NCBI GenBank assembly: GCA_963677925.2 | Contig: CAXXYH010000004.1 | Coordinates: forward strand, 1,152,001 to 1,216,000 | Reading direction: 5' to 3' | From: Spirochaetia bacterium | Lineage (GTDB): Bacteria; Spirochaetota; Spirochaetia; UBA9216 | Length of the DNA stretch: 64,000 nt | Part shown: in pieces, positions 1,726 to 17,712 of the stretch | Position numbering within the stretch: the stretch's first letter is position 1 | How the letters are laid out: the number at the start of each line of letters is the position of its first letter | Made by a program: the position numbers and the translations under genes | Notes under the pieces: model-generated | What the model was told of the DNA's origin: nothing | What the model saw: only the letters and a program-made list of their open reading frames with translations | Database searches by the model: none

Positions 1726-1799
1726 GAAATGCAACCGCTAAGAGAAAGACGCCCGGACCTCCGGTCGACGGGCGATCATGAAGAGAAAGAATATAAAAA

Positions 1800-1828
1800 T
1801 TGACATGATATATATCAAGGTATATACT
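1800..1828 (+). promoter_or_regulatory. sigma70 promoter with VapBC-type palindromic operators
   Basis: TTGACA(1800-1805)-N17-TATACT(1823-1828); TGATATATATCA 1806-1817 and GTATATAC 1820-1827. Confidence 0.8.
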
Positions 1829-1846
1829 TAAAATAGAGGTGGGTAT

Positions 1847-2077
1847 ATGCAAACGGCAAAAATTTTTCAAAATGGAAGATCTCAAGCTATTAGGATACCG
1901 AAAGAATATCAGTTTAAAGGTGATGAAGTATACATTCAAAAGCATGGCGATGCTGTACTGTTGATTCCGCATGAAAAAGCTTGGGAAGTCTTTATGGAAG
2001 GCATAAATGAGTTCACAGAAGATTTTATGAAAGATGGAAGAGAACAAGGCGAAGTACAAGAGAGAGAAGCATTTTAA
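1847..2077 (+). CDS. vapB: VapB antitoxin (AbrB-type)
   Basis: TAKIFQNGRSQAIRIPKEY signature. Confidence 0.92.
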   Translation: MQTAKIFQNGRSQAIRIPKEYQFKGDEVYIQKHGDAVLLIPHEKAWEVFMEGINEFTEDFMKDGREQGEVQEREAF

Positions 2078-2475
2078 TGTATTTACTTGATACTAATATT
2101 TGTATATTCGCGATTAAACGTAAGCCTTCAAAAGTATTTGAATTAATAAAAGAAAGATCTAAAGAAGGAATATATATTTCATCATTAACAGTAGCAGAGT
2201 TGGAATTTGGTGTTCAAAATAGTGAACGAGAAGAGCAAAACAGAATAGCTCTTCTAAAATTTCTTTCTGTATTCAATATTTTAAATTTTGATGATTCAGA
2301 CGCAATAGATTATGGGAGGATGAAAGTAGATTTAAGAAAGAATGGTAATGTAATTGGACCAATTGATATGTTATTGGCTGCGCAAGCTTTGAATAAAGAT
2401 ATGATATTTGTAACCAATAATGTAAAAGAATTTGAAAGAGTAAAAGGTTTAAGAATAGAAGATTGGAGTGTTTAG
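2077..2475 (+). CDS. vapC: VapC PIN toxin
   Basis: YLLDTNICI, IGPIDMLLAAQA and VTNNVKEFERV; TAATG coupling to vapB. Confidence 0.93.
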   Translation: MYLLDTNICIFAIKRKPSKVFELIKERSKEGIYISSLTVAELEFGVQNSEREEQNRIALLKFLSVFNILNFDDSDAIDYGRMKVDLRKNGNVIGPIDMLLAAQALNKDMIFVTNNVKEFERVKGLRIEDWSV

Positions 2476-2529
2476 AAGAATCCAGCCCTAACTCCGTCGA
2501 ACGGTCTGGATGAGGAGCGGTGGCACTAC

Positions 2530-2623
2530 AGCTAACAGGGACTATGTGCTCGTCGCTTTATGCTCCTCGGCCTTCGCCACATACGGCTTACGCCGTACGT
2601 CACATAACCCCGGGACGTTATGT
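2530..2623 (+). repeat. attC site 3 (family A)
   Basis: AGCTAAC(2530-2536)...GTTATGT(2617-2623). Confidence 0.92.
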
Positions 2624-2686
2624 TCAATGCCCGGCTTAAGAGCTTAATAGTCCTCGGCAATCCGTGGCCTCGGGAAGGAAGAAGAA

Positions 2687-3676
2687 ATGAAAAGTAATGC
2701 AGAAAAAACAATACAATCTCTTAGAAAGATTAATGATTTCCCTTTTTATATCGCAAAATATTATGGTGACTATAAAATTACTGAATATAAGAATGGAGCG
2801 ATAAAAAGTCCAAATGATATAGTTCCTTTTTTTAAAAATCTTTTTTCAGAATTAGGACAACCAACAGAGTTAAGTTTTCCAAAGCCTCCTGAAATCAATT
2901 TAGGTTGTAGTGCTTTTTTCTGCCGCGATAAAAAAAACTCTGCTATCATTGGTAAAAACAATGACTGGAAAAGAGATCCAATTCTTTTACTCAAGACAAC
3001 ACCAGATGAAGGCTATACATCATTTTCTATGGTTAATTTGAGTTTCTGTGATTTATTTCAATTAGGTTCTTTTGATCACAATCTATTATTATCACCTTAT
3101 GTTCCACTCGATGGTATGAATGAGATTGGGCTTGTTGTAACAACATTGGCTGTTCATGAAGGTTCAGAATATCCGCTAAAATCAAATCATTTATCAGTTG
3201 GTGATTTTAATTTAGTAAGAATTATCCTTGATACATGTGCCAATATAGATGAAGCAATCGTTATAATTGATCAGTATAATATAATGCAAACAGGTCCGCT
3301 TCCAATACATCTTCTTATCGCTGATAAAAGTGACTCTTGTATAGTTGAATTCTTTGATGGAAAGAAACATATAAAAAGAGATCAAGATTTAAACTACTTA
3401 ACAAATTTTCTTAAACTGAAAACTTCTGATTATGAGAATCAAAGGAATCTTTGTAATCGGTATCAGACTATAGAAAGACGGTTTAAGCAAGATAAAATTA
3501 TCATTAAAATTCATGAAGCAAAGAAAATTTTTTCAGAAGTATCAGTTTGTACTGGAAATTTTCAAATTCCAAGTACCATCTATTCAACAATATATTGTCC
3601 GAATGATTTAAGTCTGAAAATAAAGATAGGTGATGAATCAAAATATTACTCGTTATCGCTACAGGAGAGTAAATGA
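2687..3676 (+). CDS. Ntn-hydrolase (linear amide C-N hydrolase / C45-like)
   Basis: Internal nucleophile motif GCSAF, GKNNDW, PLDGMNEIGL, HLLIAD, LTNF. Confidence 0.8.
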   Translation: MKSNAEKTIQSLRKINDFPFYIAKYYGDYKITEYKNGAIKSPNDIVPFFKNLFSELGQPTELSFPKPPEINLGCSAFFCRDKKNSAIIGKNNDWKRDPILLLKTTPDEGYTSFSMVNLSFCDLFQLGSFDHNLLLSPYVPLDGMNEIGLVVTTLAVHEGSEYPLKSNHLSVGDFNLVRIILDTCANIDEAIVIIDQYNIMQTGPLPIHLLIADKSDSCIVEFFDGKKHIKRDQDLNYLTNFLKLKTSDYENQRNLCNRYQTIERRFKQDKIIIKIHEAKKIFSEVSVCTGNFQIPSTIYSTIYCPNDLSLKIKIGDESKYYSLSLQESK

Positions 3677-4239
3677 CAGATATTGAAATCCTGGGGCTAA
3701 ATAATAGCTTCTCTTTTGAAGAATTAAAGAGAGCTTTCAGACAAAAATCAAAACAATTTCATCCTGATAAAAATCAGGATAACTTGAATAGCCATCTTGC
3801 GATGATTCAATTGAATCAAGCATATTCAAATCTTCAGAAGAAAATCAAAGAAAAGCCTGTTTTGAATAATCGGGACCTATCCATAGATACTGCATATTCA
3901 ATATATAAAGATGGAATCTCAAAGTTTCAGAGTATCCATCCTTCCAAATGGAAATCATATTCTATCGATGGACTTTTTGATCCAAGTGCAATTAACACTC
4001 ATTCTGAAACACCTTTAATTTTACAATCTTTAATAACACTGATGGCAGAAGCTTATCATCGTTTTTCAACTGTAGTGAACGAACATGAAAATAGTTCTTG
4101 GTATTCAGATTCAATAACGAAAATGAAAGAAATTGAGAAAATGACACAACGGTATATCAAGATAAAGGAATCATATGAAATAGAAATGAATGATAGAAAG
4201 CGGATCAGAAAATCTGTCCATGGACTTTCTGAAAATTGA
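3673..4239 (+). CDS. J-domain (DnaJ-like) protein
   Basis: ILGL...ELKRAFRQKSKQFHPDKN...LNQAY J-domain with HPD; ATGA overlap with the upstream gene. Confidence 0.85.
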   Translation: MTDIEILGLNNSFSFEELKRAFRQKSKQFHPDKNQDNLNSHLAMIQLNQAYSNLQKKIKEKPVLNNRDLSIDTAYSIYKDGISKFQSIHPSKWKSYSIDGLFDPSAINTHSETPLILQSLITLMAEAYHRFSTVVNEHENSSWYSDSITKMKEIEKMTQRYIKIKESYEIEMNDRKRIRKSVHGLSEN

Positions 4240-4261
4240 AACCAAACCTGCCGGGCAATAA

Positions 4262-4408
4262 ACATAACAGCGAATATGCGGTTGCGCTTCGCTCCACCCA
4301 AATTGCTTCTTTGATAAAATCTGAAAAAAGTATGTTATACTTTTTCCAGATTTTATCAAGCCCCGCAAGGGGGCTGAAGCAACTTCGCATATTCGCGAAA
4401 CGTTATAT
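4262..4408 (+). repeat. attC site 4 (family B, long, 147 bp)
   Basis: ACATAAC(4262-4268) GCGAATATGCG...CGCATATTCGC GTTATAT(4402-4408). Confidence 0.88.
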
Positions 4409-4557
4409 GATATAATTGAGCAGGCGGCAAATAGACACTCGCCGTCCTGGCTTGTGTGTAAGAGAATATAAATGATTTAACAATTAATAAATGATTAAAA
4501 ATTTCAAATAGAATATAAAATCATTTAGGTTTATTTTTAGGAGAAGAAAGAAGAAGA

Positions 4558-5043
4558 ATGAAAAAATATCATTTAAATAATCGTCCAAACCGTGAATTAA
4601 CAAATGAGATTGATATTACAGCAATTTTAGAAAGTGGGAAATATGCTGTAATTGCTATGTGTCGTGATAATGAACCATATATTGTTACTTTAAGTTATGG
4701 TTATGATTCATTAAAAAAATGTTTATATTTTCATTGTTCACCTATTGGGCTAAAGCTCGATTTTATAAAATATAATGCGAAAGTTTGTGCGACAGTAATT
4801 GAAGATGGTGGATATATAGTTGATGAATGTGGTCATAATTATAGAACAGCAGTTTTCTGGGGTAATATAAATATAGTTTTAGATTTAGATGAAAAAAAGC
4901 ATGGAATGAAAATGATACTAAATCATCTTGAGGAAAATCCATCAATAATTAAGGATAAGTTATTAAAGTCAGGCGACTTTTATTCAAAGATGGAAATATT
5001 AAGGCTTGATATTTCTCAGATTCATGGGAAAGCAGGAAGATGA
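4558..5043 (+). CDS. Pyridoxamine 5'-phosphate oxidase-like / NimA-like flavin-binding protein
   Basis: EPYIVTLSYGY, LYFHC...GLKLD, YRTAVFWG motifs. Confidence 0.8.
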   Translation: MKKYHLNNRPNRELTNEIDITAILESGKYAVIAMCRDNEPYIVTLSYGYDSLKKCLYFHCSPIGLKLDFIKYNAKVCATVIEDGGYIVDECGHNYRTAVFWGNINIVLDLDEKKHGMKMILNHLEENPSIIKDKLLKSGDFYSKMEILRLDISQIHGKAGR

Positions 5044-5116
5044 TTTTAAGAGAAGTCGAAAGGCCCAAAAAACGTCCATATATTTGGGGGGGTAAATGAT
5101 AGTGCTCAAGTACGTC

Positions 5117-5211
5117 ATATAACAGGGGCTATGTGCTTCATCGCTGTGCGCTCCTCGGGCTGCGCCACATACGGCTTGCGCCGTACGTCACATATCCCCG
5201 TGAAGTTAGAT
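5117..5211 (+). repeat. attC site 5 (family A)
   Basis: ATATAAC(5117-5123)...GTTAGAT(5205-5211). Confidence 0.9.
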
Positions 5212-5229
5212 TCAATATGTCAATAAACA

Positions 5230-5880
5230 ATGAAAAAGGAGATTCCTATGACACAATTTGGTAAACCAACAGGGAAAATGGGCAAAATACTGGCAAAAGG
5301 ATTTGCTTTTGGTCATAAGGATTTTTATAAGAACACAGCATTCATTGCTGGATTAACAGAATCTGATGAATTGCTGGAAATCGGGTTTGGTTCCGGAATG
5401 TTTATTAATAAATATGCAAAGCATATAAAACATATTGCCGGATTAGATATTTCACCGGATATGGTTGAATTAGCAAAAGAGATTAACAGTAAATTGCTTG
5501 ATGAAAAAAAGCTAGAACTTATAGAAGGAAACATTTTATCATTACCTTGGAATGATAATTCTTTTTCAGTCATCATTAGTATAGAATCATTTTTCTTTTG
5601 GGAAAATGTCGAAAAAGCCGTGTTAGAAATTTATCGTGTTCTAAAACCGGGAGGAAGGATTGTTATAGAAATGGCATTTAATTTGGAAGACGGTCAAGAT
5701 CATACAAAAGATATAAAGAAAATTGGATTTCAACTTTATGAGGAGAAGAATATCCGGAATCTTTTGAACGAATCAGGTTTTATTGATGTTTCTTTCAATT
5801 ATTATAAAGCATTTTGGATTCCTATTAAGGGATATATTGTCACAAAAGGTATGATCTTTAAGGCTTGTAAGCCCCATTGA
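5230..5880 (+). CDS. Class I SAM-dependent methyltransferase
   Basis: LLEIGFGSG, GLDIS, RVLKPGG; start may be 5248. Confidence 0.88.
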   Translation: MKKEIPMTQFGKPTGKMGKILAKGFAFGHKDFYKNTAFIAGLTESDELLEIGFGSGMFINKYAKHIKHIAGLDISPDMVELAKEINSKLLDEKKLELIEGNILSLPWNDNSFSVIISIESFFFWENVEKAVLEIYRVLKPGGRIVIEMAFNLEDGQDHTKDIKKIGFQLYEEKNIRNLLNESGFIDVSFNYYKAFWIPIKGYIVTKGMIFKACKPH

Positions 5881-5888
5881 CATACTAC

Positions 5889-5967
5889 AGCTAACAGGGG
5901 CTATACGCTCCTCGGGCTGCGCCACATTCGGCTGCGCCGAACGGCACATAATCCCGAAACGTTATGT
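5889..5967 (+). repeat. attC site 6 (family A, short)
   Basis: AGCTAAC(5889-5895)...GTTATGT(5961-5967). Confidence 0.88.
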
Positions 5968-5995
5968 GTCATCTGTTGAAATATCTGGAGGTATG

Positions 5996-6472
5996 ATGAA
6001 TATAAATAAGGGAGTTGAATTAAGAAAAGAAGGCAAACTAATAGAATCAAATAACTTCTTTATAAAACTTGCAATTGAATACCCTAATGATGCCATAGTT
6101 CAGTATCAATGTGCATGGAGCTTTGATGTTTTAGAGAAAGAGACAGAAGCGATCTATTATTATGAGAAAGCAATAGAACTTGGTCTGCAAGATAATGATC
6201 TGAAAGAAGCATTGCTAGGTTTGGGTAGTACTTACCGGTCAATTGGTGAATATGAGAAATCAAAACAGACATTTGAGAAGGGAATCTCATTATTCAATGA
6301 TAATTCCTTAAAGGTTTTTTATGCGATGACCTTATACAATTATGGAGAATATTCCAGGTCTATGGATTTATTACTCAATATTATTGCGAACACAACCCAA
6401 GATAAATCTATATTAACATATAAAAAGGCAATAAAGTTTTATTCAGGGAGATTGGATGAGGTATTTAACTAA
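5996..6472 (+). CDS. Tetratricopeptide repeat protein
   Basis: EAIYYYEKAI, ALLGLGSTYRSIGEYEKS; start after GGAGG (5993/5996). Confidence 0.85.
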   Translation: MNINKGVELRKEGKLIESNNFFIKLAIEYPNDAIVQYQCAWSFDVLEKETEAIYYYEKAIELGLQDNDLKEALLGLGSTYRSIGEYEKSKQTFEKGISLFNDNSLKVFYAMTLYNYGEYSRSMDLLLNIIANTTQDKSILTYKKAIKFYSGRLDEVFN

Positions 6473-6484
6473 GGAAAGAATGAC

Positions 6485-6560
6485 ACATAACAGCGAATAT
6501 ACGGTTCCGCTTTGATTCACCCAAACTGGCCGTTGACCAGCTTCGCATATTCGCGGGATG
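6485..6560 (+). repeat. attC site 7 (family B), GTT core site deleted
   Basis: ACATAAC GCGAATAT...CATATTCGCGGGA is followed directly by TGGCAATAAGCAC, with no GTT. Confidence 0.8.
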
Positions 6561-6629
6561 GCAATAAGCACTATATTTATTGAGAAAAGCTGAATCTGCC
6601 ATCCATGGCAGATAAAAGGATTTAAATGC

Positions 6630-7454
6630 ATGATTTATGAATTGGACAAAGCAGATTATTATAGGGCCGAGAATCTTTTTACCAAGTTGAAAACAAACAC
6701 AGCAATTGAGTCAATTTTTAACCATAAAAACGAAGCTCGTCTGTTTGTTGATAATCCAAGTAAACCGAAAAGCATCTTCATTCTTAATTCATGGGCTTAC
6801 TACTATCTGGCTGGTGAATCCGAAAATGAAAAATTTAATTCTTCATTAGTTAAGTTTCTTGAAAATGATTTTTTTCCAGAATGTCTCAAAACAAATTCTA
6901 ATACAGTTTTCGCATTTTATCCCGATAGTAACCAGTGGTGTAAAAAATCTGAAGAAATATTTTCTCATTTGAATATTGAAAAATCGGGAAAAACCTATTT
7001 TAACTATGATGAAAAACGTTTCAATAAAAACTGGAGAGAAAATATTCCTGAAGGTTTCAGTGTAAAAAGAATCAGCTCGGAAATTATTAATTCAATTGAA
7101 AATAATGAAGAATTTGTAAATTACATAAAATTTGCCTGGACAACAACTGATCAGTATTTTGACAAAGGATTGGGATACTGTGCTATTGATGCAAATGATT
7201 TTGCAACAATTTGTATTTCTGTTTTTGCTTCTGAAAATGAGCGAGAAGTGGGGATTAAAACATTTCCTGACTTTCAAAGAAAGGGATTGGCATATGTTAC
7301 AGCCTGTGCCTATATTGAAGAATGTTTAAAAAATAATTTTGTTCCTGTCTGGTCATGTTTTAGCGAAAATAAAGTATCAATAAGATTAGCAGAAAAACTT
7401 GGCTACAAAATCGAAGCCTCGCATCCGATTTATTTTGCGAAGATTGGTGATTGA
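6630..7454 (+). CDS. GNAT family N-acetyltransferase
   Basis: EVGIKTFPDFQRKGLA and NKVSIRLAEKLGY. Confidence 0.88.
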   Translation: MIYELDKADYYRAENLFTKLKTNTAIESIFNHKNEARLFVDNPSKPKSIFILNSWAYYYLAGESENEKFNSSLVKFLENDFFPECLKTNSNTVFAFYPDSNQWCKKSEEIFSHLNIEKSGKTYFNYDEKRFNKNWRENIPEGFSVKRISSEIINSIENNEEFVNYIKFAWTTTDQYFDKGLGYCAIDANDFATICISVFASENEREVGIKTFPDFQRKGLAYVTACAYIEECLKNNFVPVWSCFSENKVSIRLAEKLGYKIEASHPIYFAKIGD

Positions 7455-7514
7455 AGAAAACGTATCGCTGGGCATCCATGCCTCTCTACAGGCTTGCATT
7501 CCTGTGCTTGCTGC

Positions 7515-7663
7515 CTATAACAGAGAATATACACTGCGGCTCGCCTTGGCATTCTGCAAATCGCCTTTGACAAATACCTGATGAAATGTGATACAATTTC
7601 CCATATATTTATTACCCCTATAGGGGTGCCAGGCGACTTTCGTATATTCGAGGAACGTTAGGC
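7515..7663 (+). repeat. attC site 8 (family B, long, 149 bp)
   Basis: CTATAAC(7515-7521) GAATATAC...GTATATTC GTTAGGC(7657-7663). Confidence 0.85.
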
Positions 7664-7682
7664 CATAATTTATGGAGAAAAA

Positions 7683-8141
7683 ATGGATGTACATATAAGT
7701 AAATTAAACTCCAATACGGATGTTCCTATGGATTTATTGCTACTTGCCGATCCATCGGAAGAATTAGTTAAAAGTTATCTTAAAAAGGGAACATGCTATA
7801 TCGCTGAATTTGATGAAGAAACAGTTGGCGTTATTCTTATTGTGGAGACAAAACCACATACTGTTGAAGTTATGAATCTTGCGGTTAAAGAAGAACTGCA
7901 TAATAACGGTATAGGCAAAAAACTCCTCTTGCACGTTATTGAAGAAATAAAAAAAAGTGATACAAAAACAATTGAAATCGGAACTGGAAATCCCGGAGTA
8001 GTACAAATGTTATTGTATCAAAAGTGTGGTTTCCGTATCGTAGGGATAGATTTTGATTTTTTTAGAAGGACGCATCCTGAACCGATATATGAGAATGGAA
8101 TAGAATGCCGTGATATGATAAGAATGAGAATTGAGTTATAG
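7683..8141 (+). CDS. GNAT family N-acetyltransferase
   Basis: LLLLADPS, NLAVKEELHNNGIGKKL, LYQKCGFRI. Confidence 0.9.
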   Translation: MDVHISKLNSNTDVPMDLLLLADPSEELVKSYLKKGTCYIAEFDEETVGVILIVETKPHTVEVMNLAVKEELHNNGIGKKLLLHVIEEIKKSDTKTIEIGTGNPGVVQMLLYQKCGFRIVGIDFDFFRRTHPEPIYENGIECRDMIRMRIEL

Positions 8142-8175
8142 TATGGAGGGTCTTAACGGTTTTATCCATAAACAG

Positions 8176-8257
8176 CCCTAACAGCGAATATGCGGTTCTA
8201 CATGGCTTCAACCAAATTAGCCTGCGGCCAACTTCGCATATTCGCGGGACGTAATCT
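8176..8257 (+). repeat. attC site 9 (family B), core mutated to GTA
   Basis: CCCTAAC(8176-8182) GCGAATATGCG...CGCATATTCGC GTAATCT(8251-8257). Confidence 0.8.
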
Positions 8258-8541
8258 GAAATGCCACCGCGAAGATGTAGCTGCCCGGGTCTCCGGCCGG
8301 CGGGTGATTCTGCAGAGAAAGAATTAAAAACTGTCACGATATATCAAGGTCTATACTTTAAGTAGAGCTGAGTATATGTAAAACTGCAAAAATATTTCAG
8401 AATGGAAGATCTCAAGCCATTCAAATCCCGATAGAATATCAGTTTAAAGGTTATGAAGTATACATTAAAAAACATGGTGATGCTGTATTGCTGATTCCAC
8501 ATGAAAAAGTATGTGAATTAATAAAAGAAAGATCGAAAGAA
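8251..8541 (+). pseudogene. Degenerate, internally deleted copy of the vapBC cassette at 1719-2536
   Basis: Leader, promoter and vapB 5' part align with 1719-1979 (ATG followed by TAA at 8376-8381), then jump to vapC sequence 2135-2166. Confidence 0.88.
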
Positions 8542-8544
8542 TAT

Positions 8545-8865
8545 AATCCGGTTTATGATGGTCCTCAATTTAAAAATATTAATATCAAACCTTTCAGAAT
8601 AAATGAGTCTGCATCTGAAGAACTCTTTAAGATTAGATATTTTTTCAATCAAAATAAAAATACATTTTACTTTCTTTTCAAGAAAAAAGAGTTAATTGGT
8701 GCAACTCTATATCTGTGAAATTATATTCAATCGCTCTGCATTAACCGAAAGTACCAAAGAATGGGATATGGTGCTAAGCTAACAAAATTCGTTGTAAATA
8801 AAATACTATCAGATGGTCATGACAAGGTTACATTAAAAGTTGTAATTGAAAATATTCATAATTAA
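8545..8865 (+). pseudogene. GNAT acetyltransferase remnant
   Basis: After in-frame TGA 8716-8718 the frame continues NYIQSLCINRKYQRMGYGAKL...VTLKV (GNAT motif A). Confidence 0.7.
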
Positions 8866-8923
8866 TGTTATTAATTATAAGTTTGTCTTTTGTGACAGGC
8901 TAATTCAAAAGTAGGAGAAACGT

Positions 8924-9391
8924 ATGAGTTTCAAAAGCAAAAATGAATTAGGTCTATCTGACGTATGTTGTAAGAATTTTTTAAATGATTTAGAAACCGA
9001 AAATGTTTGGAGTTTTTTTCAAAGATTTGAAAAAGATTCAGACCCCACCGATTTAACTGTAGCCGAAGAGTCTTATTTTGATAATTTTCTGTTTTGTGAT
9101 CCAAGTAGTGCTAATTCAATTAAGAAAGAAGATTTCTTGAAATTTTTACCAATTATGACAACTAAATATAAAGAGTTGGGGTACAAAGATAAAAAGTTAA
9201 AAGGACTAGATGTCATCAAATTGAATGATTATTATCTATTAGTCAATGTTACCTGGAATATGATATTTGTAAAGAATGATTTATTAAATGAATATGATGA
9301 TATTAAAGCTACTTATATTTTAAAAAAAGAAAAAAATGGGCATAAAATTATATTTCATTTGGATCATCAAAAATTAAGTGAGATTGTCTAA
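8924..9391 (+). CDS. NTF2/SnoaL-like hypothetical protein
   Basis: AGGAG RBS; YLLVNVTW...ATYILKK...KIIFHLDH NTF2-like C-terminus. Confidence 0.6.
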   Translation: MSFKSKNELGLSDVCCKNFLNDLETENVWSFFQRFEKDSDPTDLTVAEESYFDNFLFCDPSSANSIKKEDFLKFLPIMTTKYKELGYKDKKLKGLDVIKLNDYYLLVNVTWNMIFVKNDLLNEYDDIKATYILKKEKNGHKIIFHLDHQKLSEIV

Positions 9392-9477
9392 AAAAAGATA
9401 AGAAATGAAGATAAATCCGTGACTCTTAATAATTAAAATTTCCTCAATCTTTTAAAGATAAAAAGTGAGAAAAATTC

Positions 9478-9520
9478 TTGCAAATCATGTAATAACATAG
9501 TAAGCTATATGTAATTACAT
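9478..9520 (+). promoter_or_regulatory. sigma70-like promoter with two ATGTAAT(T/A)ACAT operators
   Basis: TTGCAA(9478-9483)-N17-TAAGCT(9501-9506); palindromes at 9487-9498 and 9509-9520. Confidence 0.65.
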
Positions 9521-9538
9521 CAATATTTAGGGGCCTCA

Positions 9539-9952
9539 ATGCGTATACCAATAATTAATATCGGAAATTCTAAGGGGATAAGGATTCCTCAGGCAATTCT
9601 TAAACAGGTTAGCTTTAGTGGTGAGATTGACTTAGAAATTGATAATGGAAAAATTGTTTTAAACAGATCCAATAGTCCCGATATAGTACCGGATTTTGAT
9701 TCAATACCGGAAATGGATGATATTACTATACAAAGAATGTTAAGAAAAATAACCGGTATGGATCTGATCACTTCCTTAATAGATGCAGATCAAAGTATTA
9801 AAGAAGCTGTCTATAGAAATCTATCAGAACGCGTTAGAAATTATGTGGTTTTAAAAGTAGAAAAGTTGGAGAAGGGAGATGCTAAAGATTTAATTATTGA
9901 GCAAAGCCGTAATGCTATAAGTGAAGCCTTTATGGATTTAAAAAATGAATAA
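9539..9952 (+). CDS. AbrB/MazE DNA-binding domain fused to a FliG C-terminal-like domain
   Basis: N-term IGNSKGIRIPQ; C-term FDSIPEMDDITIQRMLRKI...DL...IKEAVYRNLSER resembles FliG_C (FEDI..LDDRSIQ..LRE...RNMSKR). Confidence 0.78.
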   Translation: MRIPIINIGNSKGIRIPQAILKQVSFSGEIDLEIDNGKIVLNRSNSPDIVPDFDSIPEMDDITIQRMLRKITGMDLITSLIDADQSIKEAVYRNLSERVRNYVVLKVEKLEKGDAKDLIIEQSRNAISEAFMDLKNE

Positions 9953-9968
9953 AGTAAAGGAGGCTTTA

Positions 9969-10148
9969 ATGGAGAATTTGAATAAGATAATGGAAATGAG
10001 TGACGGGCAAATTCAGGAATCTTTCGACTTATGCAAGGTCTGCAATTGAAAATTCTGTTAATAAATTTAAAAAAGCAGAAATAAAGATTTAGAGATACAA
10101 ACGAGTATTCAATTAATTAAAAGTTTAATTGAAAAAAAGGCAATTGCT
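9969..10148 (+). pseudogene. Broken stand-alone FliG_C-like gene
   Basis: GGAGG RBS; MENLNKIMEMSDGQIQ / RNLSTYARSAIENSVNKFKKAEIK / DLEIQTSIQLIKSLI read across two frame changes and align with the upstream FliG_C domain. Confidence 0.65.
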
Positions 10149-10505
10149 ATGGATATTTTTAAAGCCATAAAAAATGGAAATATAGAATTTATTCGCAATT
10201 ACATTAAAAGTGGAAATGATTTAAGCATAAGAGATTAATATGAAATGACTCCACTGATTGTAGCAACTGATGAAGGTAGATTAGAGCTTGTTAAATTGCT
10301 GATAGAAGCCAAGGCTGATATAAATGATCAAGACACAGTCGGGCAGACTGCTTTGCATTTAGCTGCAGGCAGAAATTACACTGAAATCATAAAACTTTTA
10401 ATAAAAGCAAAAGCAAGAATAGATATTAAAGCTGTTAATCGTTTGACAGCATTTGAATATGCTACGGAAAATGGAATGAAAGAAGCTGCACTGCTTTTAA
10501 AGTAG
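10149..10505 (+). pseudogene. Ankyrin repeat protein with internal stop
   Basis: MDIFKAIKNGNIEFIRNYIKSGNDLSIRD*(TAA 10236-10238)YEMTPLIVA...GQTALHLAA. Confidence 0.75.
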
Positions 10506-10662
10506 GTAGAGAAAATGAGAAATATGTGTATTCATTCCTTGGAACGGTTTATAATATGAGTCGGGATAAATTGATATCAGGCACTATTTAGAATTGTTAA
10601 AAAAAGAGGAATCCATAGCCGTATAGAAAGCTCTTGTTGTATATGCGGTTTTGAGTTATCTA

Positions 10663-11454
10663 ATGAAGATTGAAAACTTAATAAATTCATATGATTCAAC
10701 AGCTGAAGTTTATGATGAAGAAACAAGTACTTTTCATCATAAAATTTGTGAATTTCTCACAATAAAAAACATGCTTTTAGAATTACCTGAAGATACAAAT
10801 ATAAAAATATTAGATGCTGGCGGCGGCACGGGTAAATATTCAATTATTCTGAATGATTATGGATACTCTCCTGAACTAATTGATATAAGCAGTAAAAGTG
10901 TCGAGGTATTTAATAAGAAAATGGAACAAAGAGGACTGGCTCTCAAGTCGTTTGTATGCAATGCAGAATCAACTCCTTTTAAAAGAGAACGGTTTGATTT
11001 TATTATGATGAACGGCGGGGTGATTGGTTATACTCTTAATCCTTCAATGTTGCTCAAAGAAGTTCATAGAATTTTAAAAGCAGATGGTAAGCTCTGGTTT
11101 GATTTTCCTAACACATTAGGCTGGGCAATTGAAGTACAAGATCCGGGTTTGAAAATTGAATTATCTAAGGCTGATGATAAAATGATTCAGATGCCTGACT
11201 GGGATTATCCAGTAAGACTGTTTAGCTTGAGGAAGATTGAAAAGATGCTGAATGATGCAGGATTTGAGATAAAATCAAAATACGGATTAATTTTTTTGTC
11301 TAATTCCCTTCCTTTGAAAGAAAGATATTCAAAAAAATATAATCTTGAGTTGCTTGAAAAATATAAAATAGCCGAGCTGGAATTAAGCAGAAAAAAAGAT
11401 TGCGTAAGGGCCTCTTGGGCGTGTTCCATTTGTGCAAAAAAAATATTCCATTGA
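10663..11454 (+). CDS. Class I SAM-dependent methyltransferase
   Basis: ILDAGGGTG, IDIS, EVHRILK. Confidence 0.85.
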   Translation: MKIENLINSYDSTAEVYDEETSTFHHKICEFLTIKNMLLELPEDTNIKILDAGGGTGKYSIILNDYGYSPELIDISSKSVEVFNKKMEQRGLALKSFVCNAESTPFKRERFDFIMMNGGVIGYTLNPSMLLKEVHRILKADGKLWFDFPNTLGWAIEVQDPGLKIELSKADDKMIQMPDWDYPVRLFSLRKIEKMLNDAGFEIKSKYGLIFLSNSLPLKERYSKKYNLELLEKYKIAELELSRKKDCVRASWACSICAKKIFH

Positions 11455-11486
11455 ATCACCTTGCGTTTCAGTAAAAGAGAGGTCTT

Positions 11487-11969
11487 ATGAGTAATGCAGT
11501 TTTAATTTTTTTTGCAATAGCAATAATAATGATTGTTGGTTTTTATAAAAATAAAAAATCAAAAAGCATCAGTACCCATGAAAGATTAGAGGATGAAGCG
11601 CTTGATTATAATCAGGAATTTATTGAAAATTCAGAGGGTAAAGATATTATCCCGTTTGTTCGAATTTTTGCACAATCAGATAAACTGATGCTCCGATCTC
11701 TGCTTTCTTCAGAAGGTGTATGCACATACATTACAAATGAAAACACAAACAATCTGTTTCCAGGCAGAATGGTACAGGGCTATACTGATACTGTAATATA
11801 TATTTTCAAAGAGGATCAGGCTATGGCTCGACCAATAATTGAAGACTATATTTTGAATCTTATTGAAAATATAAATCCGGAAATTAAAACAAAGGCAATA
11901 GATTTGGTTGCGGCAATGGCTTTGCTGCCTACCAGTATGAATCAGATATTACCGGAGTTTATTGATTGA
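11487..11969 (+). CDS. Membrane-anchored hypothetical protein (DUF2007-like)
   Basis: N-terminal TM helix; MLRSLLSSEGV...ENTNNLFP...IYIFKEDQAMARPII. Confidence 0.55.
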   Translation: MSNAVLIFFAIAIIMIVGFYKNKKSKSISTHERLEDEALDYNQEFIENSEGKDIIPFVRIFAQSDKLMLRSLLSSEGVCTYITNENTNNLFPGRMVQGYTDTVIYIFKEDQAMARPIIEDYILNLIENINPEIKTKAIDLVAAMALLPTSMNQILPEFID

Positions 11970-12826
11970 GTACTGAAATTTATTATTTTTCCGGTACAGG
12001 AAACTGTCTGTACACAGCCAGAATGATAGGGACAGAAAATAATTTTAAAGTAATCTCAATACCTCAGTTCCTGAAGAGCTCTGATAATACTGTACAGGCC
12101 GAACGGATAATTATTGTCTTTCCGTCATATCTGGCTGCTGCTTGCGGAGTTCCTCTGATTGTAGAAAGGTTCGTTAGGGCAATTGAGGATATTGAACTGA
12201 AAAAGATAACCGCTGTCTGTACATGCGGGGGGTATGAAATAGTAAACGCCAATCCTTCATTGATAAAGCTGAAAAAAATAATTGAATCGGCTGGGGGCAG
12301 GTTGGAAACAAGGTTTTCACTGCGGCTTCCGATGAATAACCTTGATTATGAACATATCCCGGTTCCTATAGAAAAAAGAACCGAGCATATATTAACGCAA
12401 GCCGAGTCAAAATTACAAAAAATCAGTAAACAAATTGGAAGCAGCACAGGGGGGCAATTTGAAATTTCGAATACATTATTCAATTTTATAATACAACCCC
12501 TTTTTAAAATAATGAAAAATGCTACATTAAACAGCTTGAGAGGATATGCAGAAGAGGTTAACCCTTCTTTAAGCTGTAATGAATTATTACCTCTGACAGA
12601 TAGAAGAATTAAAGTTAAGGAAAATTGTAACGGCTGTGGAGTCTGTGCAAGGATATGTCCTGTAGAAAATATTGAATTAATAAATGGAAGTCCCCAATTC
12701 ATGCACAAGTGTGAAGTGTGTTTTGCCTGTGATGAATGGTGTCCGCAGGGCGCTATACAGCACTGGGGCAGATCCCGCGGCGTTAAATACCATCATCCAA
12801 AGATAAAAATAAACGATATGTTTTAG
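11966..12826 (+). CDS. EFR1-family flavodoxin/4Fe-4S ferredoxin
   Basis: YYFSGTGN; CNGCGVCARICP; CEVCFACDEWCP. Confidence 0.9.
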   Translation: MSTEIYYFSGTGNCLYTARMIGTENNFKVISIPQFLKSSDNTVQAERIIIVFPSYLAAACGVPLIVERFVRAIEDIELKKITAVCTCGGYEIVNANPSLIKLKKIIESAGGRLETRFSLRLPMNNLDYEHIPVPIEKRTEHILTQAESKLQKISKQIGSSTGGQFEISNTLFNFIIQPLFKIMKNATLNSLRGYAEEVNPSLSCNELLPLTDRRIKVKENCNGCGVCARICPVENIELINGSPQFMHKCEVCFACDEWCPQGAIQHWGRSRGVKYHHPKIKINDMF

Positions 12827-12872
12827 TTTCCTGCGAAGCAGGAACTTAGTATTATTCAATCAGGAGTGAATT

Positions 12873-13166
12873 ATGGGAATGCATTGTGTTGTCTTTCATT
12901 ATCCAGGACCAAAATGGCAGGATGAATATGATTTTAGAAATCAGCCTGGAATTATGGAACATGTGGAGCATTATTCAAAACTGATGGAGTCAGGGAAACT
13001 TCGAATGGGTGGACCCTTTTCTGATGCAGATTCCGGAGGGATGATGATTGCAGAAGATGGTGTTTCCATGGAAGAAATTGAAAAGTTTGCCTCCGACGAT
13101 CCAGCTGTAAAGAAAGGCCTGCTTACTTTTAAAGTAAGATTGTGGTATGTTCCTATGAGTAAATGA
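12873..13166 (+). CDS. YciI family protein
   Basis: EHVEH...GKLRMGGPF...DDPAVKKG. Confidence 0.85.
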   Translation: MGMHCVVFHYPGPKWQDEYDFRNQPGIMEHVEHYSKLMESGKLRMGGPFSDADSGGMMIAEDGVSMEEIEKFASDDPAVKKGLLTFKVRLWYVPMSK

Positions 13167-13906
13167 AAAGAATAATTATCGCCGGTCTTCTGACTGTATT
13201 TGTTCTCGTAATAGCTGCAGCTGCTTCATTTCAGTACAGCAGGTCTTGGCAGAATGCCCTGTTTGTACACCCATTGTACCGGCTTCCGGGAGATGAAAAA
13301 GTTGTGGCACTTACCTTTGATGACGGGCCGTCTGAGAAAAGAACGCCGGCTCTTTTAGCTATGCTTGAAGAAAATAATGTTAAAGCTTCTTTTTTTATGC
13401 TTGGCGAAAATATTGAAAGATATCCTGATATCGCCCGGCAGGTGTATGAAAAGGGACATCTCATAGGAAATCACTCTTATGACCATCCGCGAATGATTTT
13501 TAAATCTTTCAGTTTTGTCAGAAATCAGATAACCAGGACCGACGGTCTTATTAAATCAGCAGGCCAGATTAATATTCAGTATTTTCGGCCGCCATATTCT
13601 TCAAAATATATTGTTCTGCCGCTGGTTCTTAAAGCAATGGATAAAACTCTTGTGACCGGTTCCTATGATCCGCCCTCTGAATATATCAGACCGTTTGATG
13701 CGGAAAAAGTTGCAGCCGAGGTTATTGAAAATGCAGAACCAGGTGCTGTGATCTATCTTCATGACGGCAAAGATTCTGATGTGCAAGAGTTTATTGAATC
13801 CGTTAGACTAATCATAAGCGGTCTTCGAGCTGAAGGTTATAGATTTGTAAGGCTTGATTATCAGAATGAGCATTTAAAAGAAAGCTTTGCACTTGAGATA
13901 CACTAA
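13163..13906 (+). CDS. Polysaccharide deacetylase (NodB/CE4)
   Basis: ALTFDDGP, GNHSYDHP, FRPPY, YLHDG. Confidence 0.92.
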   Translation: MKRIIIAGLLTVFVLVIAAAASFQYSRSWQNALFVHPLYRLPGDEKVVALTFDDGPSEKRTPALLAMLEENNVKASFFMLGENIERYPDIARQVYEKGHLIGNHSYDHPRMIFKSFSFVRNQITRTDGLIKSAGQINIQYFRPPYSSKYIVLPLVLKAMDKTLVTGSYDPPSEYIRPFDAEKVAAEVIENAEPGAVIYLHDGKDSDVQEFIESVRLIISGLRAEGYRFVRLDYQNEHLKESFALEIH

Positions 13907-13947
13907 GCAGAACCGTATACTGGAGCCGGCAATCAAGGAGTACAATT

Positions 13948-14193
13948 ATGAAAATAGATAAAAATGAAATAATCAGACTGCTTAATGAAAAAAAGGCACT
14001 GCTTCCATGTCATAGATGTGGAACAGAAAACTTTACTGTAATGAACAGTTTTTCAAAGGTAATATTGCAGGATGATATAAACAGCGAGACTGATATAGAA
14101 GGAGCCTCTGTGCCCGTGGCAATAATTGCGTGCAGGAACTGTGGTGCTATTACTTTTCATGCCCTCGGCGCTCTCGGTGTTCTTCAGGGTTAA
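13948..14193 (+). CDS. Small zinc-ribbon-like protein
   Basis: CHRCG...CRNCG; AAGGAG RBS. Confidence 0.7.
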   Translation: MKIDKNEIIRLLNEKKALLPCHRCGTENFTVMNSFSKVILQDDINSETDIEGASVPVAIIACRNCGAITFHALGALGVLQG

Positions 14194-14202
14194 TAACTTT
14201 AA

Positions 14203-14643
14203 GTGATGATAAAAACAGCAGGAAAGGATGACCTGCATGATGTCCTGAAACTGTATTCACAGCTGCATCCTGATGAGGATTATTCTATTCCAGACCATTA
14301 TGCAGATACCTGGCTGCAGATTATTAAAGACCCTAAAATCAGCTGCCTGATAGCCTATTCTGATGAACAGCCGGTTTCCTCCTGTACGGTCTCTGTTATT
14401 CCCAACATCACCAGAAGCCAAAGACCCTTCGCTGTAATTGAGAATGTGGTAACCGACCAAGCTTTCCGCAGACAGGGCTACGCCCGGAGCATAATAATAA
14501 AAGCTGTTGAGCTTGCCCGTGAACAGAACTGCTATAAGGTTATGCTTCTCAGCAGTTCGGAACGTGAAGATGCACACCGGTTTTATGAGAAAATAGGATT
14601 TGACGGAAACTCCAAGAAGGGCTATCAGATGCGTCTTGCCTGA
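14203..14643 (+). CDS. GNAT family N-acetyltransferase
   Basis: IENVVTDQAFRRQGYA; CYKVMLLS; AHRFYEKIGF. Confidence 0.9.
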   Translation: MMIKTAGKDDLHDVLKLYSQLHPDEDYSIPDHYADTWLQIIKDPKISCLIAYSDEQPVSSCTVSVIPNITRSQRPFAVIENVVTDQAFRRQGYARSIIIKAVELAREQNCYKVMLLSSSEREDAHRFYEKIGFDGNSKKGYQMRLA

Positions 14644-14664
14644 AAACACTAAAAAGGTTATTTC

Positions 14665-15177
14665 ATGGAAAAAGTTATATTTCATAAAGAAGGATTAAAT
14701 GTTGACGGGAAGGGGCATATAAGAACAGCAGTCAGGGCCGTAATTGTTCGGAACCGCAGTATCCTTGTGATTCACTCCGGCGTTAACGGAGATTATAAAT
14801 TTCCAGGCGGAGGACTGGAAACAGGTGAGAGCCATGAGCAGGCACTTACTCGGGAAGTAAGTGAAGAGTGCGGACTTGACGGCACTGAAGTTGGCGAACT
14901 GCTCGGGCATATTGCCGAGTATGATGCTCCTGTGGAAGAAGCCCTTGATTTTTTCAGGATGGATTCTTTCTATTACCGCTGCGGTATATCAAATACAATG
15001 ACCTCAGGACAAAATCTGGACCAATACGAAAAAGAGCTGGAGTTTACTCCGATCTGGGTGGATATTGAAACAGCCGTTAAAAACAATAAAAGAATAATTG
15101 AATCAAAAAACGATTTCCCCCGCTGGGTCATCAGAGATACTATGTTTCTAGAGTATCTTTTAAAACAGATAATTTAA
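14665..15177 (+). CDS. NUDIX hydrolase
   Basis: PGGGLETGESHEQALTREVSEECG Nudix box. Confidence 0.9.
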   Translation: MEKVIFHKEGLNVDGKGHIRTAVRAVIVRNRSILVIHSGVNGDYKFPGGGLETGESHEQALTREVSEECGLDGTEVGELLGHIAEYDAPVEEALDFFRMDSFYYRCGISNTMTSGQNLDQYEKELEFTPIWVDIETAVKNNKRIIESKNDFPRWVIRDTMFLEYLLKQII

Positions 15178-16134
15178 AAGGTAAATCATCGCTGTCGAGA
15201 ATACGATCTGTCCGCCGAAAGTTATGAATCCTGTAAGCAGGGCTTTTTTGCCGCTTGTAAGCAGTGTCTTAAACCTGATATTCATTCCTGTCGCCGCCAT
15301 TGCAGTTATCAGGCTAAACTCCGAAATCCACTTTAAAATTGAAATTAACCGGGCAGGAATTATTCCGGTTGACGATACAATGGAAAATATTATAAACAAA
15401 ATGATGTAAACAGGAATTCCCGGAATCCTGCCTGTAGTTTTTGTTTTACCGGTTTTTCGAAAATTGAGAAGAATAACTATCGGAGATATCAGCAGAACCC
15501 TGCCCATTTTAACTATAGTTGCAATCTTGCCCGGTTCATCACCTATCGAAAATCCGGCAGCAGTAACCTGGCCTACCGCCTGAAGTGTATTGCCGATCAG
15601 CATTCCTGATTCCCTGTCGGAAAAACCCGGAAGTATAAGAGCAAGGAATGGCAGCAGGAAGATGCCAAGGGTTCCAAGCAGATTAATGATTCCTATCGAT
15701 ATGCCTGCGTACTCATCTTTTGTTTTAATGACGCCCTGGGCCGCCGCAATTGCAGAGCTCCCGCAGACTGCGTTGCCGATTCCTACCAGAAGGTTAAGCT
15801 CTCTATCCATTCCAAGCAGTTTTCCTGTAAACATTGAAAAGCTTATGGTAAAGGCAACACCGCATATAATCATGATGATGACCGGCAGTCCAAGTTCTAT
15901 GAGTATTGTGTAATTAAGACTGAAGCCCATTAGGGCAATTGCCACAGGAAGGAGTTTTTTTTCAGAGAATTTTATTCCGCCTGAAAGAGCATCAGGTATC
16001 TTTATCAGGTTTCCGATTATAATTCCTGCCAGTATGGCAATTGTGACACCGCCGATAATAAAAAAATCTGAGGTGATAAGCGCAAGCAGGGCAATGACAA
16101 GACAAAGGCCAAGCCCCGGCAGTATATTCAGCAT
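15160..16134 (-). CDS. YeiH/UPF0324 putative sulfate exporter
   Basis: Multi-TM; GNAVCGSSAIAA; ATIVKMGRV. Confidence 0.88.
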   Translation of the reverse strand: MLNILPGLGLCLVIALLALITSDFFIIGGVTIAILAGIIIGNLIKIPDALSGGIKFSEKKLLPVAIALMGFSLNYTILIELGLPVIIMIICGVAFTISFSMFTGKLLGMDRELNLLVGIGNAVCGSSAIAAAQGVIKTKDEYAGISIGIINLLGTLGIFLLPFLALILPGFSDRESGMLIGNTLQAVGQVTAAGFSIGDEPGKIATIVKMGRVLLISPIVILLNFRKTGKTKTTGRIPGIPVYIILFIIFSIVSSTGIIPARLISILKWISEFSLITAMAATGMNIRFKTLLTSGKKALLTGFITFGGQIVFSTAMIYLLNYLF

Positions 16135-16170
16135 GTATGTCTCCTCTCTGCATTATGATATAATTTTTAA

Positions 16171-16695
16171 ATGAAATATACAGCACTCTTAAGAGGAATA
16201 AATGTTGGCGGGAAACGTAAAGTTGATATGAAGATTCTCCGCAAACTTTTTGAAGAGGCATCGCTTAACGATGCCGAGACATATCTTAACTCGGGGAATG
16301 TGATTTTTAACTCTGACAGGGAAGCCTGTGAACTTACCGGGATTATTATGAAGCTGATTGAGGACGGGTTCGGCTTTGAGGTGCCGACTCTGGTTATTTC
16401 ACAGGATGAGATTAAGCGCATTGTGTCTCAAATTCCGGAATCATGGCAGAATGACTCAGAGCAGAAAACAGATGTAGCCTTTCTTTTCTCAGCTATCGAT
16501 TACCCGGAGATTATTGATGAACTTCCGGTTAAGAAGGATTATCTTGATATCTGCTACACGCCCGGCGCAGTTATCTTGCATGTGGAGCGTCAGGATCAGA
16601 ATAAAAGTCAGCTCAGCAAGCTGGCCGGTCACAAACATTACCGGCAGATGACTGTACGCAATATCAACACTGCAAGATATCTCTCCGGATTGTGA
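16171..16695 (+). CDS. DUF1697 family protein
   Basis: ALLRGINVGG; TYLNSGNVIF; TVRNINT. Confidence 0.9.
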   Translation: MKYTALLRGINVGGKRKVDMKILRKLFEEASLNDAETYLNSGNVIFNSDREACELTGIIMKLIEDGFGFEVPTLVISQDEIKRIVSQIPESWQNDSEQKTDVAFLFSAIDYPEIIDELPVKKDYLDICYTPGAVILHVERQDQNKSQLSKLAGHKHYRQMTVRNINTARYLSGL

Positions 16696-16729
16696 TATTA
16701 TTATATCAAATGAAAACGGAGGATTAAAA

Positions 16730-17686
16730 ATGAGGATTAAAAATGTAGTATCACTATGCCTGCTTGCCGTGACTACGGTCTCAGCTTTCGGCACTGATGT
16801 ATTTTCATCGAAGGATTCGTTTCTGTTTGAATGCGGAACGGGAATGAACTATACATTTGATCAGAGTTCCGGTGAGTTTAATACCAATCCTGATTTTACT
16901 TTTTACTTTGGCAGGGTTGAACGGAATGGAGCCCCTTCGGAAGAAGCCGCCTTTCTCAACCAGATCGGATGGGCTGATATTCAGGCGCAGTTTTTTACCA
17001 ATCTCAAACAGACTTCAATCGATGGTACCGTCAACAGCCTGGACAATACAACAGTCGGTTTTGATCTTGATCTGCGGTGGGTCTATGACGGCTTTCCTTT
17101 AATTATTGAAATACCCCTGGAAGACAAGCGGATAAGGTGGAAAACAGATGAAACCACTGTAGCTGTCCTAAGGTATCATATCCTTGCTCTTAGGGCCGGG
17201 TATTATATCTTTCCGGAAACCGAAATTTCTCTTGGATGGGGATATCTGCAGCCTGATCTTTTTTACAAGACAGACTGGGATTCGACCATATATTCCTACC
17301 TTGCCGCCGACGTGGGTATAATCACAGCAAGGATGAAATCTGTAATGGATCTCTCAAACGGAATGTGGCTTTCGACAACCCCCGAAATTGCAGTTCTCTA
17401 TGATGATAACGGAAACCTCCTTTATAACTATGCAGCAGAACTTGCTTTTTATCCGGTAGACTCACTGCGTATAGGTTTGAATGCTTCCTCCTCCGACTTT
17501 GTTGAAGGGGATTCTTCGGTTAATCCATTTATTGAAGTTCTTGGTGCAAGCAGTCTTGCCGCCTCGGTGAAAACTGACCTCTTTGATATTTTTTCGCTTG
17601 AAGTTATGGGTTCTGTAAAGATTGCAGCGGATCCGGAATATGATCCGGTATTTGAAGCCGGGGGAGTAATTTCGGCAAGATACTGA
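16730..17686 (+). CDS. Secreted protein, probable outer-membrane beta-barrel
   Basis: Signal peptide; alternating aromatic beta-strands; C-terminal aromatic residue (ISARY). Confidence 0.55.
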   Translation: MRIKNVVSLCLLAVTTVSAFGTDVFSSKDSFLFECGTGMNYTFDQSSGEFNTNPDFTFYFGRVERNGAPSEEAAFLNQIGWADIQAQFFTNLKQTSIDGTVNSLDNTTVGFDLDLRWVYDGFPLIIEIPLEDKRIRWKTDETTVAVLRYHILALRAGYYIFPETEISLGWGYLQPDLFYKTDWDSTIYSYLAADVGIITARMKSVMDLSNGMWLSTTPEIAVLYDDNGNLLYNYAAELAFYPVDSLRIGLNASSSDFVEGDSSVNPFIEVLGASSLAASVKTDLFDIFSLEVMGSVKIAADPEYDPVFEAGGVISARY

Positions 17687-17712
17687 GATATTTTTCTGGT
17701 ATACTTTTAGCC

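Follow-up and report, generated by a model that had tools for sequence, protein, structure and literature searches.

An AbrB/MazE-type domain joined to a FliG C-terminal domain: a candidate autoregulatory protein surviving in a decayed module beside a spirochaete chromosomal integron

What does the C-terminal domain of FliG, the face at which torque is generated in the flagellar rotor, do when it is joined to the DNA-binding head of an antitoxin? The question is raised by a stretch of 64,000 nucleotides (nt) from a Spirochaetia bacterium (G000:C4:1152001-1216000, in a genome of 5.04 Mb and 4 contigs), hereafter called the window, whose features are described below on its plus strand. At 9539-9952 the window carries an intact open frame (gene 1) for a protein of 137 amino acids (aa), with an AbrB/MazE-type N-domain (residues 1-45) and a FliG_C-type C-domain (residues 52-135). 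An earlier note, made from the letters of this DNA, had paired gene 1 with a second, broken FliG_C gene behind it (gene 2) and had proposed a formerly mobile module resembling a toxin-antitoxin (TA) system, in which a free FliG_C would act on the flagellar motor, or a transcription factor that senses motor components. The explanation that we favour, with about even confidence, is that gene 1 encodes a small protein that binds DNA, regulates its own gene and descends from an antitoxin of the MazE type, the tail of which has been replaced by a FliG_C partner-binding domain; in the window it is the surviving member of a freshly decayed module of three genes.

The fusion described in the note is real, and it is conserved and more than a chance arrangement. 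When the profile searches and structure prediction that the note had advised were run, residues 52-135 matched Pfam FliG_C (PF01706) with 38.2 bits, against a curated gathering cut-off of 23.3, and residues 8-41 matched MazE_antitoxin (PF04014) with 16.4 bits, under the cut-off of 24.7. A profile of 33 family members, which are conserved in both domains with a column identity of 75% on average, matched FliG C-domains in the PDB (E 3e-9) and, over residues 3-43, the solved AbrB/MazE/SpoVT protein 7d2n_E (E 3.3e-4), compared with E values of 8.7e-5 and 0.075 for the single gene 1 sequence. One relative, L027, reaches 28.5 bits for PF04014, above the Pfam cut-off, and the family is carried by 8 of the 120 homologues listed. 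Among the NCBIfam models, gene 1 matched positions 241-310 only of the fliG model TIGR00207 (33.4 bits, cut-off 226.7) and ChpS at E 0.031. The motif IGNSKGIRIP is indeed common to gene 1 and the MazE protein of the first cassette in the window (ATG at 177), within a match of 44% identity over 41 aa.

The structural comparison specifies which part of FliG is present. An AlphaFold2 model built from the alignment has a predicted local distance difference test (pLDDT) score of 84-93 in the C-domain and of about 50 in the N-domain; the low value is expected, since the AbrB/MazE-type domain is an obligate swapped dimer. All of the best 16 Foldseek matches of the C-domain model are FliG, and VIA-align superposes the model on Thermotoga maritima FliG 236-298 with Z 9.6 and a root-mean-square deviation of 1.6 Å over 63 residues, followed by other FliG structures and the cytoplasmic domain of MgtE (Z 7.1). 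The superposition at 1.6 Å is limited to gene 1 residues 51-114, and the packing of the last helix differs from that in FliG. Since the fold matches and F53 of gene 1 aligns with the second F of the FliG hinge motif, the segment present is the helical domain after the hinge, without ARM_C, the segment to which the polymerisation cited in the note refers. The true FliG of this genome is encoded elsewhere (C4:2284703, an open frame of 355 aa).

Gene 1 belongs to a family that is uncharacterised but visible in the databases. A word-indexed protein search returned 295 proteins at E <= 0.001 (about 300 family members), and among the 120 of them listed nearly every one has a length of 137 aa, with identities of 61-100%; more distant versions of the same architecture, of 132-137 aa and below 50% identity, comprise L027, P0170, P0191, P0200 and P0202, and one distant version comes from Sporosalibacterium faouarense (Bacillota). 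Its distribution is accessory and patchy. In a sample of 400 other genomes of the phylum, 6 have a full-length match; such matches occur, within single genera, in 2 of 5, 1 of 2 and 1 of 2 genomes, and in none of 40 relatives from the genus, family and class, in which the N-domain matched MazE-like genes, the C-domain FliG itself, and nothing else was found. A single-protein scan of genome contigs gave one locus only, and no new gene 1 locus appeared when the class and order of genome G318 were searched. An alignment scan of metagenome contigs yielded 4 full-length loci among 80 matches kept, the remainder being ordinary MazE genes caught through the N-domain pattern and therefore rejected. 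No full-length gene 1 was found on 72,556 plasmid records, where the N-domain only matched Leptospira plasmid antitoxins (49%), in 50,697 phage records, or in viral contigs as scanned; the PHROGs match is to an N-domain family of unknown function only (1.4e-5). Annotation of the family is inconsistent among sources, which call it either 'MazE antitoxin' or 'FliG'. We found no published account of this architecture in the full-text literature, a body of text that largely excludes subscription journals, and the mention in a Leptospira paper is a gene product name in a table and no more.

The control region of gene 1 is organised like that of an antitoxin gene. A -35 hexamer TTGCAA (9478-9483), with TTGCAA or TTGACA at the same place in eight other loci, is followed by an operator-like box ATGTAATAACAT in the promoter spacer (9487-9498), found by motif enrichment and present at the same position in other loci, by a -10 hexamer TAAGCT 17 nt after the -35 (9501-9506), where homologous loci read TATACT, TATGCT or TACACT, and by a second operator-like box ATGTAATTACAT (9509-9520), a perfect 12-nt palindrome and thus given without strand; an AGGGG ribosome site and the gene 1 ATG come next. 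The -10 hexamer is missing from a consensus promoter scan because it matches at only three of six positions. Both boxes are versions of ATGTAATWACAT, and across the 64 kb of the window the motif ATGTAATWAC is found 4 times compared with 0.19 expected, three times at the gene 1 promoter and a fourth time at 140-149, in the promoter of the true mazEF cassette (129-179: TTGACA at 129-134, ATGTAATTAC at 140-149, TATAAT at 152-157, ATG at 177). The same order of -35, box, -10, box and ribosome-binding site (RBS) precedes the homologues L016 and L023-L029, in surrounding sequence that is otherwise unrelated, and is weakly visible upstream of L031. The TA-like promoter with palindromic boxes described in the note thus recurs across loci and, in a related layout, at a true mazEF operon. 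Given the shared motif, the sequence identity and the box layout, gene 1 is related to a real antitoxin gene in its 5' half together with its control region, and from the conservation of the boxes across loci we infer that they are binding sites of the AbrB domain, palindromic operators through which gene 1 would regulate itself.

Some further occurrences of these elements may be recorded here. The mazEF cassette (window 129-425) has a second copy on contig C3 (G000:C3:126320-126450) with the same promoter and an attC-like flank, which suggests a second array or a stray cassette. At G000:C3:103986, the one further perfect copy of ATGTAATTACAT in the genome is placed within a coding frame, in its 5' end, and a TIR-like gene (FFSYAHEDE motif) is found just upstream of that frame; we take this copy as chance. 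In the promoter of the BrnT/BrnA cassette (G000:C4:1150480-1150545, window about -1520 to -1455), TTGACA, ACAATGTAATTACAGT and TATAAAT succeed each other, and the palindromic core is that of the gene 1 and MazE boxes; BrnA is not known to be an AbrB-fold protein.

The partners of gene 1 were studied in nine distinct loci with at least 400 nt of sequence downstream of it (the window, L016, L023-L027, L029 and L030), L016 and L018 being the same contig and counted once, and L028 and L031 being left out because their contigs end within 240 nt. An ankyrin-repeat gene lies downstream in five of them (the window, L023, L024, L029, L030), a FliG_C-only gene in three (the window, L026, L029), and a 127-aa membrane protein of no family in two (L016, and L026 with an in-frame stop); gene 1 is therefore found without gene 2 in six of the nine. 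Gaps of 13-46 nt separate the genes; the ankyrin gene of L029 shares 4 nt with the FliG_C-only gene of that locus. Pfam searches of the neighbours gave ankyrin, FliG_C-only, LCM methyltransferase, DUF4180 or no-family proteins, and a known toxin family beside gene 1 in none of the nine loci, so that the place behind gene 1, read by the note as that of a toxin, is occupied by no known toxin family in these loci. PADLOC-DB 2.0 has no family matching gene 1, gene 2 or the membrane protein, and the ankyrin neighbours match its generic ankyrin-containing models only. Partnership of gene 1 with ankyrin and FliG_C-only genes is accordingly recurrent but loose, and the pair described in the note is not an obligate one: ankyrin genes are the commoner companions and, in genome G177, gene 1 and a FliG_C-only gene are on different contigs. 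Intact two-gene versions, for which the note had advised a search together with attC sites, do exist: in L026 (genome G223) the FliG_C-only gene at 6429-6686 encodes 85 aa with a FliG_C match of 33.5 bits, and in L029, from a metagenome, the gene at 2097-2372 encodes 91 aa as called and 82 aa from the conserved start. No attC flanks the module in the window, and no flanking repeat family is present at L024 or L026.

A few details of these loci stand apart. In L026 the membrane-protein gene (6718-7096) has an in-frame TAA where L016 and L111 have a sense codon, so that here, too, gene 1 is intact and a partner next to it is broken; an Atlas search with the 127-aa protein gave no match at or above 0.9. 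Methyltransferase genes of different families adjoin the module in two loci, namely a class I S-adenosylmethionine-dependent methyltransferase in the window (10651-11454) and an LCM-type one between gene 1 and the ankyrin gene in L023 (6532-7350).

FliG_C also exists widely as a free mini-protein. In a profile search, 76 of the best 150 representatives at 50% identity are of 100 aa or less, and the Atlas clusters of such proteins list 142 and 52 members. The stand-alone gene of G177 (in the region L129, G177:C2, 5640-10930) has the same -35/box/-10/box promoter as gene 1 and lies directly upstream of flgN-flgK-flgL-fliW-csrA, an insertion that is absent upstream of flgN in all five sister genomes and hence specific to this lineage; an IS21-type element (IstB, Mu-transposase-like) and an AEP primase gene are found 2-4 kb upstream. 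In G326 a free FliG_C gene is accompanied by a DinB gene and the 127-aa membrane protein. The representative library furthermore contains FliG_C in other non-FliG architectures (P0218, P0245, P0247, P0207, P0222, P0175, P0189 and others), which include tandem copies, DUF4116 repeats, MotA_ExbB, an adenylate/guanylate cyclase domain and DnaB_C, as well as one FliM-FliG fusion.

In the window the partners of gene 1 have decayed. Gene 2 starts with an RBS GGAGG (9959-9963), 5 nt before the ATG at 9969, an arrangement repeated in L026; this ATG is sixteen bases past the end of gene 1, and the frame soon breaks. The remnant (9969-10170) has stops in every frame, and intact genes of this kind encode 82-98 aa. 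Three collinear pieces of it match intact FliG_C-only proteins (E 0.003, 0.001 and 0.057 against a 700-nt target), whose own Pfam FliG_C scores are 33.5-41.2 bits. Behind it, and passed over by the earlier note, which had described two genes, lies the third gene of the module, an ankyrin-repeat gene (10149-10505; Pfam Ank families) with 59% identity to the ankyrin gene of L023 and 45-47% to those of L024, L029 and L030, interrupted by an in-frame TAA at 10236-10238; it is either a pseudogene or the source of a truncated product from the ATG at 10245. Neither gene 2 nor this ankyrin gene has a further copy elsewhere in the genome.

The history of this decay can be read from Logan contigs of two public runs (X1, X2) aligned to window 9300-10700. 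One X1 contig is identical to the window throughout; as it may come from the same sample, it shows only a second assembly with the same letters. Two other contigs are relatives, one from X1 with about 88% identity and one from X2 with about 94%, syntenic on both flanks, and the counts that follow rest on the 40 listed of 133 differences. Both carry 83 extra letters at the joint where window 10007-10018 (GCAAATTCAGGA) fits both sides, from which it follows that the window lost 95 nt between copies of a 12-nt repeat, one copy being kept. The loss removed about 32 codons from the core of the domain and shifted the frame, a correction to the note, which had put the deletion at about 27 codons. Both relatives also read C at 10237, turning the TAA of the window into TCA (Ser). 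As neither lesion is found in the relatives, both are specific to the lineage of the window and recent. In the gene 2 of X2, two A-runs have changed in length (+2 and -2 letters) and each of the three stop codons in one frame carries a substitution, so that, by the listed differences, this frame is open from the FRNLS motif to the stop at 10168-10170, with 99 codons in all. The third piece of the window remnant ('DLEIQTS...', window frame 0) resembles the C-termini of the family, whereas the open frame of X2 is another one, and the reading frame that the note had assigned to the last third of gene 2 is thus not confirmed. Gene 1 has fared differently: all 11 of its listed differences from the two relatives are synonymous, third-position changes, while 8 of 9 in the ankyrin gene change a residue and one is synonymous. 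Gene 1 is thus under purifying selection beside a broken second gene, in keeping with the intact-first, broken-second pattern seen by the earlier reader.

The module lies at the edge of a chromosomal integron. A tyrosine recombinase gene at C4:1138043-1139116 scores 232.5 bits (cut-off 220) for NF040815, named 'site-specific tyrosine recombinase/integron integrase', and remains below the cut-off of TIGR02249. It is on the same strand as the cassettes, and at least 26 hits to an attC profile built from 5 sites of this array are spread over about 19.5 kb (window -11212 to 8264). The cassettes carry MazE/MazF, PIN/Phd, MazE-like/PIN, BrnT/BrnA, GNAT acetyltransferases and methyltransferases. The last recognisable attC is at 8178-8264, and the gene 1 module follows 1.2 kb beyond it; no further attC was found with the profile from 8265 to 20000, so that the module is not bounded by attC, and Rfam gave nothing over window 1-20000. 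All genes up to 15.2 kb are on the plus strand, and the G+C content is 31-32% up to about 12 kb, compared with about 43% in the genome. Right after the last attC, at 8229-8541, the beginning of cassette 3 (1697-2166; VapB/PIN, MazE-like/PIN) is repeated in degenerate form, with 75-95% identity. This copy lacks about 155 nt, through which the antitoxin gene has lost its end and the PIN gene its start. Considering the missing attC, the low G+C content and this decayed copy, the module lies in cassette-like, partly decayed DNA just past the end of the array.

If gene 1 encodes an autoregulatory protein of this kind, its AbrB-fold head would dimerise, bind the two ATGTAATWACAT boxes over its own sigma-70-type promoter and repress the operon, in the manner of MazE and AbrB. 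A folded helical domain of the FliG_C type would have replaced the disordered toxin-binding tail of MazE and would serve as a protein-binding module, with the co-transcribed ankyrin-repeat protein and/or the free FliG_C mini-protein as likely partners, and partner binding would modulate repression, as the small SinI does for SinR. It is speculation that the orphan protein may also act on other promoters with such boxes, e.g. those of mazEF cassettes, and that orphan gene 1 may persist through this cross-regulation.

This proposal combines features of several known systems. With MazE, ChpS and PemI (PF04014) gene 1 shares a DNA-binding domain at its N-terminus, of the swapped-hairpin type and with the motif GNSKGIRIP, the first position in a tight operon and a promoter overlapped by palindromic boxes of the same type; it differs from them in the absence of MazF, PemK or another known toxin downstream, in the variable downstream genes (ankyrin, FliG_C-only, small membrane protein, none), and in having a folded 85-aa FliG_C where MazE has a short acidic toxin-binding tail. 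SpoVT consists of an AbrB-fold head and a separate folded C-domain that sets the oligomeric state or senses a signal. The same plan of head and folded C-domain is seen in gene 1, although here the C-domain is FliG_C-like and not GAF-like, a link to sporulation is absent, and the gene is accessory and patchy rather than core. The C-domain agrees with that of FliG (PF01706; 1lkv, 1qc7, 8ucs) in the sequence and fold of the post-hinge helical domain, including F53, an R.LS.R motif and R98, and is related in fold to the N-domain of MgtE; unlike FliG, gene 1 has no N and M domains and no ARM_C, and, by the profile alignment, most charged positions of the torque helix are not retained. In Bacillus subtilis, SinR is a repressor with a helical C-terminal interaction domain, and SinI is a small homologous protein encoded beside it. 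Gene 1 as the putative repressor, with gene 2 beside it encoding a small homologue of its C-domain, resembles this pair by analogy only: SinR has a helix-turn-helix and gene 1 an AbrB fold, it is not evident that gene 2 was copied recently from the C-domain of gene 1, and a heterodimer would be hypothetical here.

Several observations weigh against this explanation. The TGTAATTACA core of the boxes also occurs in the BrnTA cassette promoter and 27 times in the genome, mostly inside genes, compared with about 10 expected from base composition, and the box alone is therefore not specific. The AbrB domain of gene 1 itself lies under the Pfam cut-off, and the monomer model is poor there (pLDDT about 50). 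The partners vary, and two of the nine loci (L025, L027) have no recurrent neighbour at all, so that the ligand of the C-domain may be a small molecule or the product of some distant gene. Homology links gene 2 to the C-domain of gene 1 (hhalign 97.3%, 30% identity), but the profile score of gene 2 to that domain is no closer than to FliG itself, and a tree of 182 FliG_C domains over 82 columns, with 120 AbrB-type rows thinned to 29, gives no resolution: one side of it, itself unsupported, takes 72 of the 85 small proteins, and 7 changes are needed for those fused to AbrB. Scores and tree together thus leave a recent duplication of the SinI/SinR kind without support. A complex prediction for the C-domain (L029 version, 46-137) with a FliG_C-only protein (score 0.02, mark 0.32) is neutral on binding.

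Alternatively, the locus could be TA-like in the full sense, with the free FliG_C and/or the ankyrin protein as an effector that inhibits growth or motility and with gene 1 as a repressor that neutralises it through its own FliG_C, so that in the window the effector would have decayed first and left an orphan antitoxin. The kinship of the 5' half of gene 1, operators included, with the true mazEF cassette, the order of regulator and partner at tight spacing as in TA operons, the position among decayed and intact TA cassettes at the integron end, and the breakage of the partners beside an intact gene 1 are all consistent with this. We nevertheless consider it unlikely, as no known toxin family adjoins gene 1 at any of the nine loci, gene 2 is missing from six of them and separated from gene 1 in G177, a typical antitoxin tail would lack the fold and the high conservation of this C-domain, the plasmid, phage and viral sequences searched gave no full-length copy, and PADLOC matches for both genes are absent.

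A more far-reaching alternative is that gene 1 and gene 2 use their FliG_C domains to contact the MotA stator or proteins of the C-ring; transcription would then follow the state of the motor, or the free domain would tune it. The domain is that part of FliG which faces the stator (the fold match being to FliG 236-298), and the charged stator-facing residues of FliG in E. coli and Salmonella are K264, R281, D288, D289 and R297. An ungapped profile alignment places family positions 52-105 on Salmonella FliG 235-288 (offset 183), by which R281 falls on the invariant R98; K264, however, corresponds to I/V81 and D288 to the variable position 105, while D289 and R297 are beyond the aligned range and D289 would fall on a mostly lysine position. 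As to the MotA contact cited in the earlier note, R281 is, within the aligned range, the only one of these charged residues with an equivalent that is kept. All hosts with a name or phylum on record belong to flagellated lineages (Spirochaetota and one species of Bacillota), FliG_C is fused to MotA_ExbB in other proteins, and the G177 gene with its gene 1-type promoter directly precedes flagellar genes. Yet this last position is the lineage-specific insertion described above, and flagellar neighbours are absent at the other loci. On balance a motor-linked regulator is improbable, and the same low standing applies to its widest form, in which spirochaetes and some Bacillota would share a mobile mini-module of the FliG torque domain (the fusion, the free 82-98-aa domain and ankyrin) that engages the stator or C-ring, either as a brake or decoy held by the fusion or as a switch responding to motor state. 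Least of all do we believe that gene 1 is here a functionless leftover, unmutated so far by luck, since in spite of two broken neighbours and of other decayed cassettes around it, such as the VapB/PIN copy, its listed differences are all synonymous, its promoter and boxes are intact, and its family is conserved at 60-100% identity.

Under the autoregulatory explanation that we prefer, the domain known as the torque-generating rotor face of FliG would have gained a second use, as the effector half in a repressor of the antitoxin type, and it is also found as a free mini-protein under the same operator-like boxes. In the window the decay of such a module can be dated, a slippage deletion and a nonsense mutation having removed the partners while the regulator has remained under purifying selection. 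If the domain only binds partners, the family would show clearly how a TA antitoxin became a regulator through the exchange of its tail. There is a small chance of a truly new motor-linked function: if the domain still touches the motor, it would represent a new kind of motility control on accessory DNA, and the many free FliG_C mini-proteins would then constitute an unrecognised class of motor modulators.

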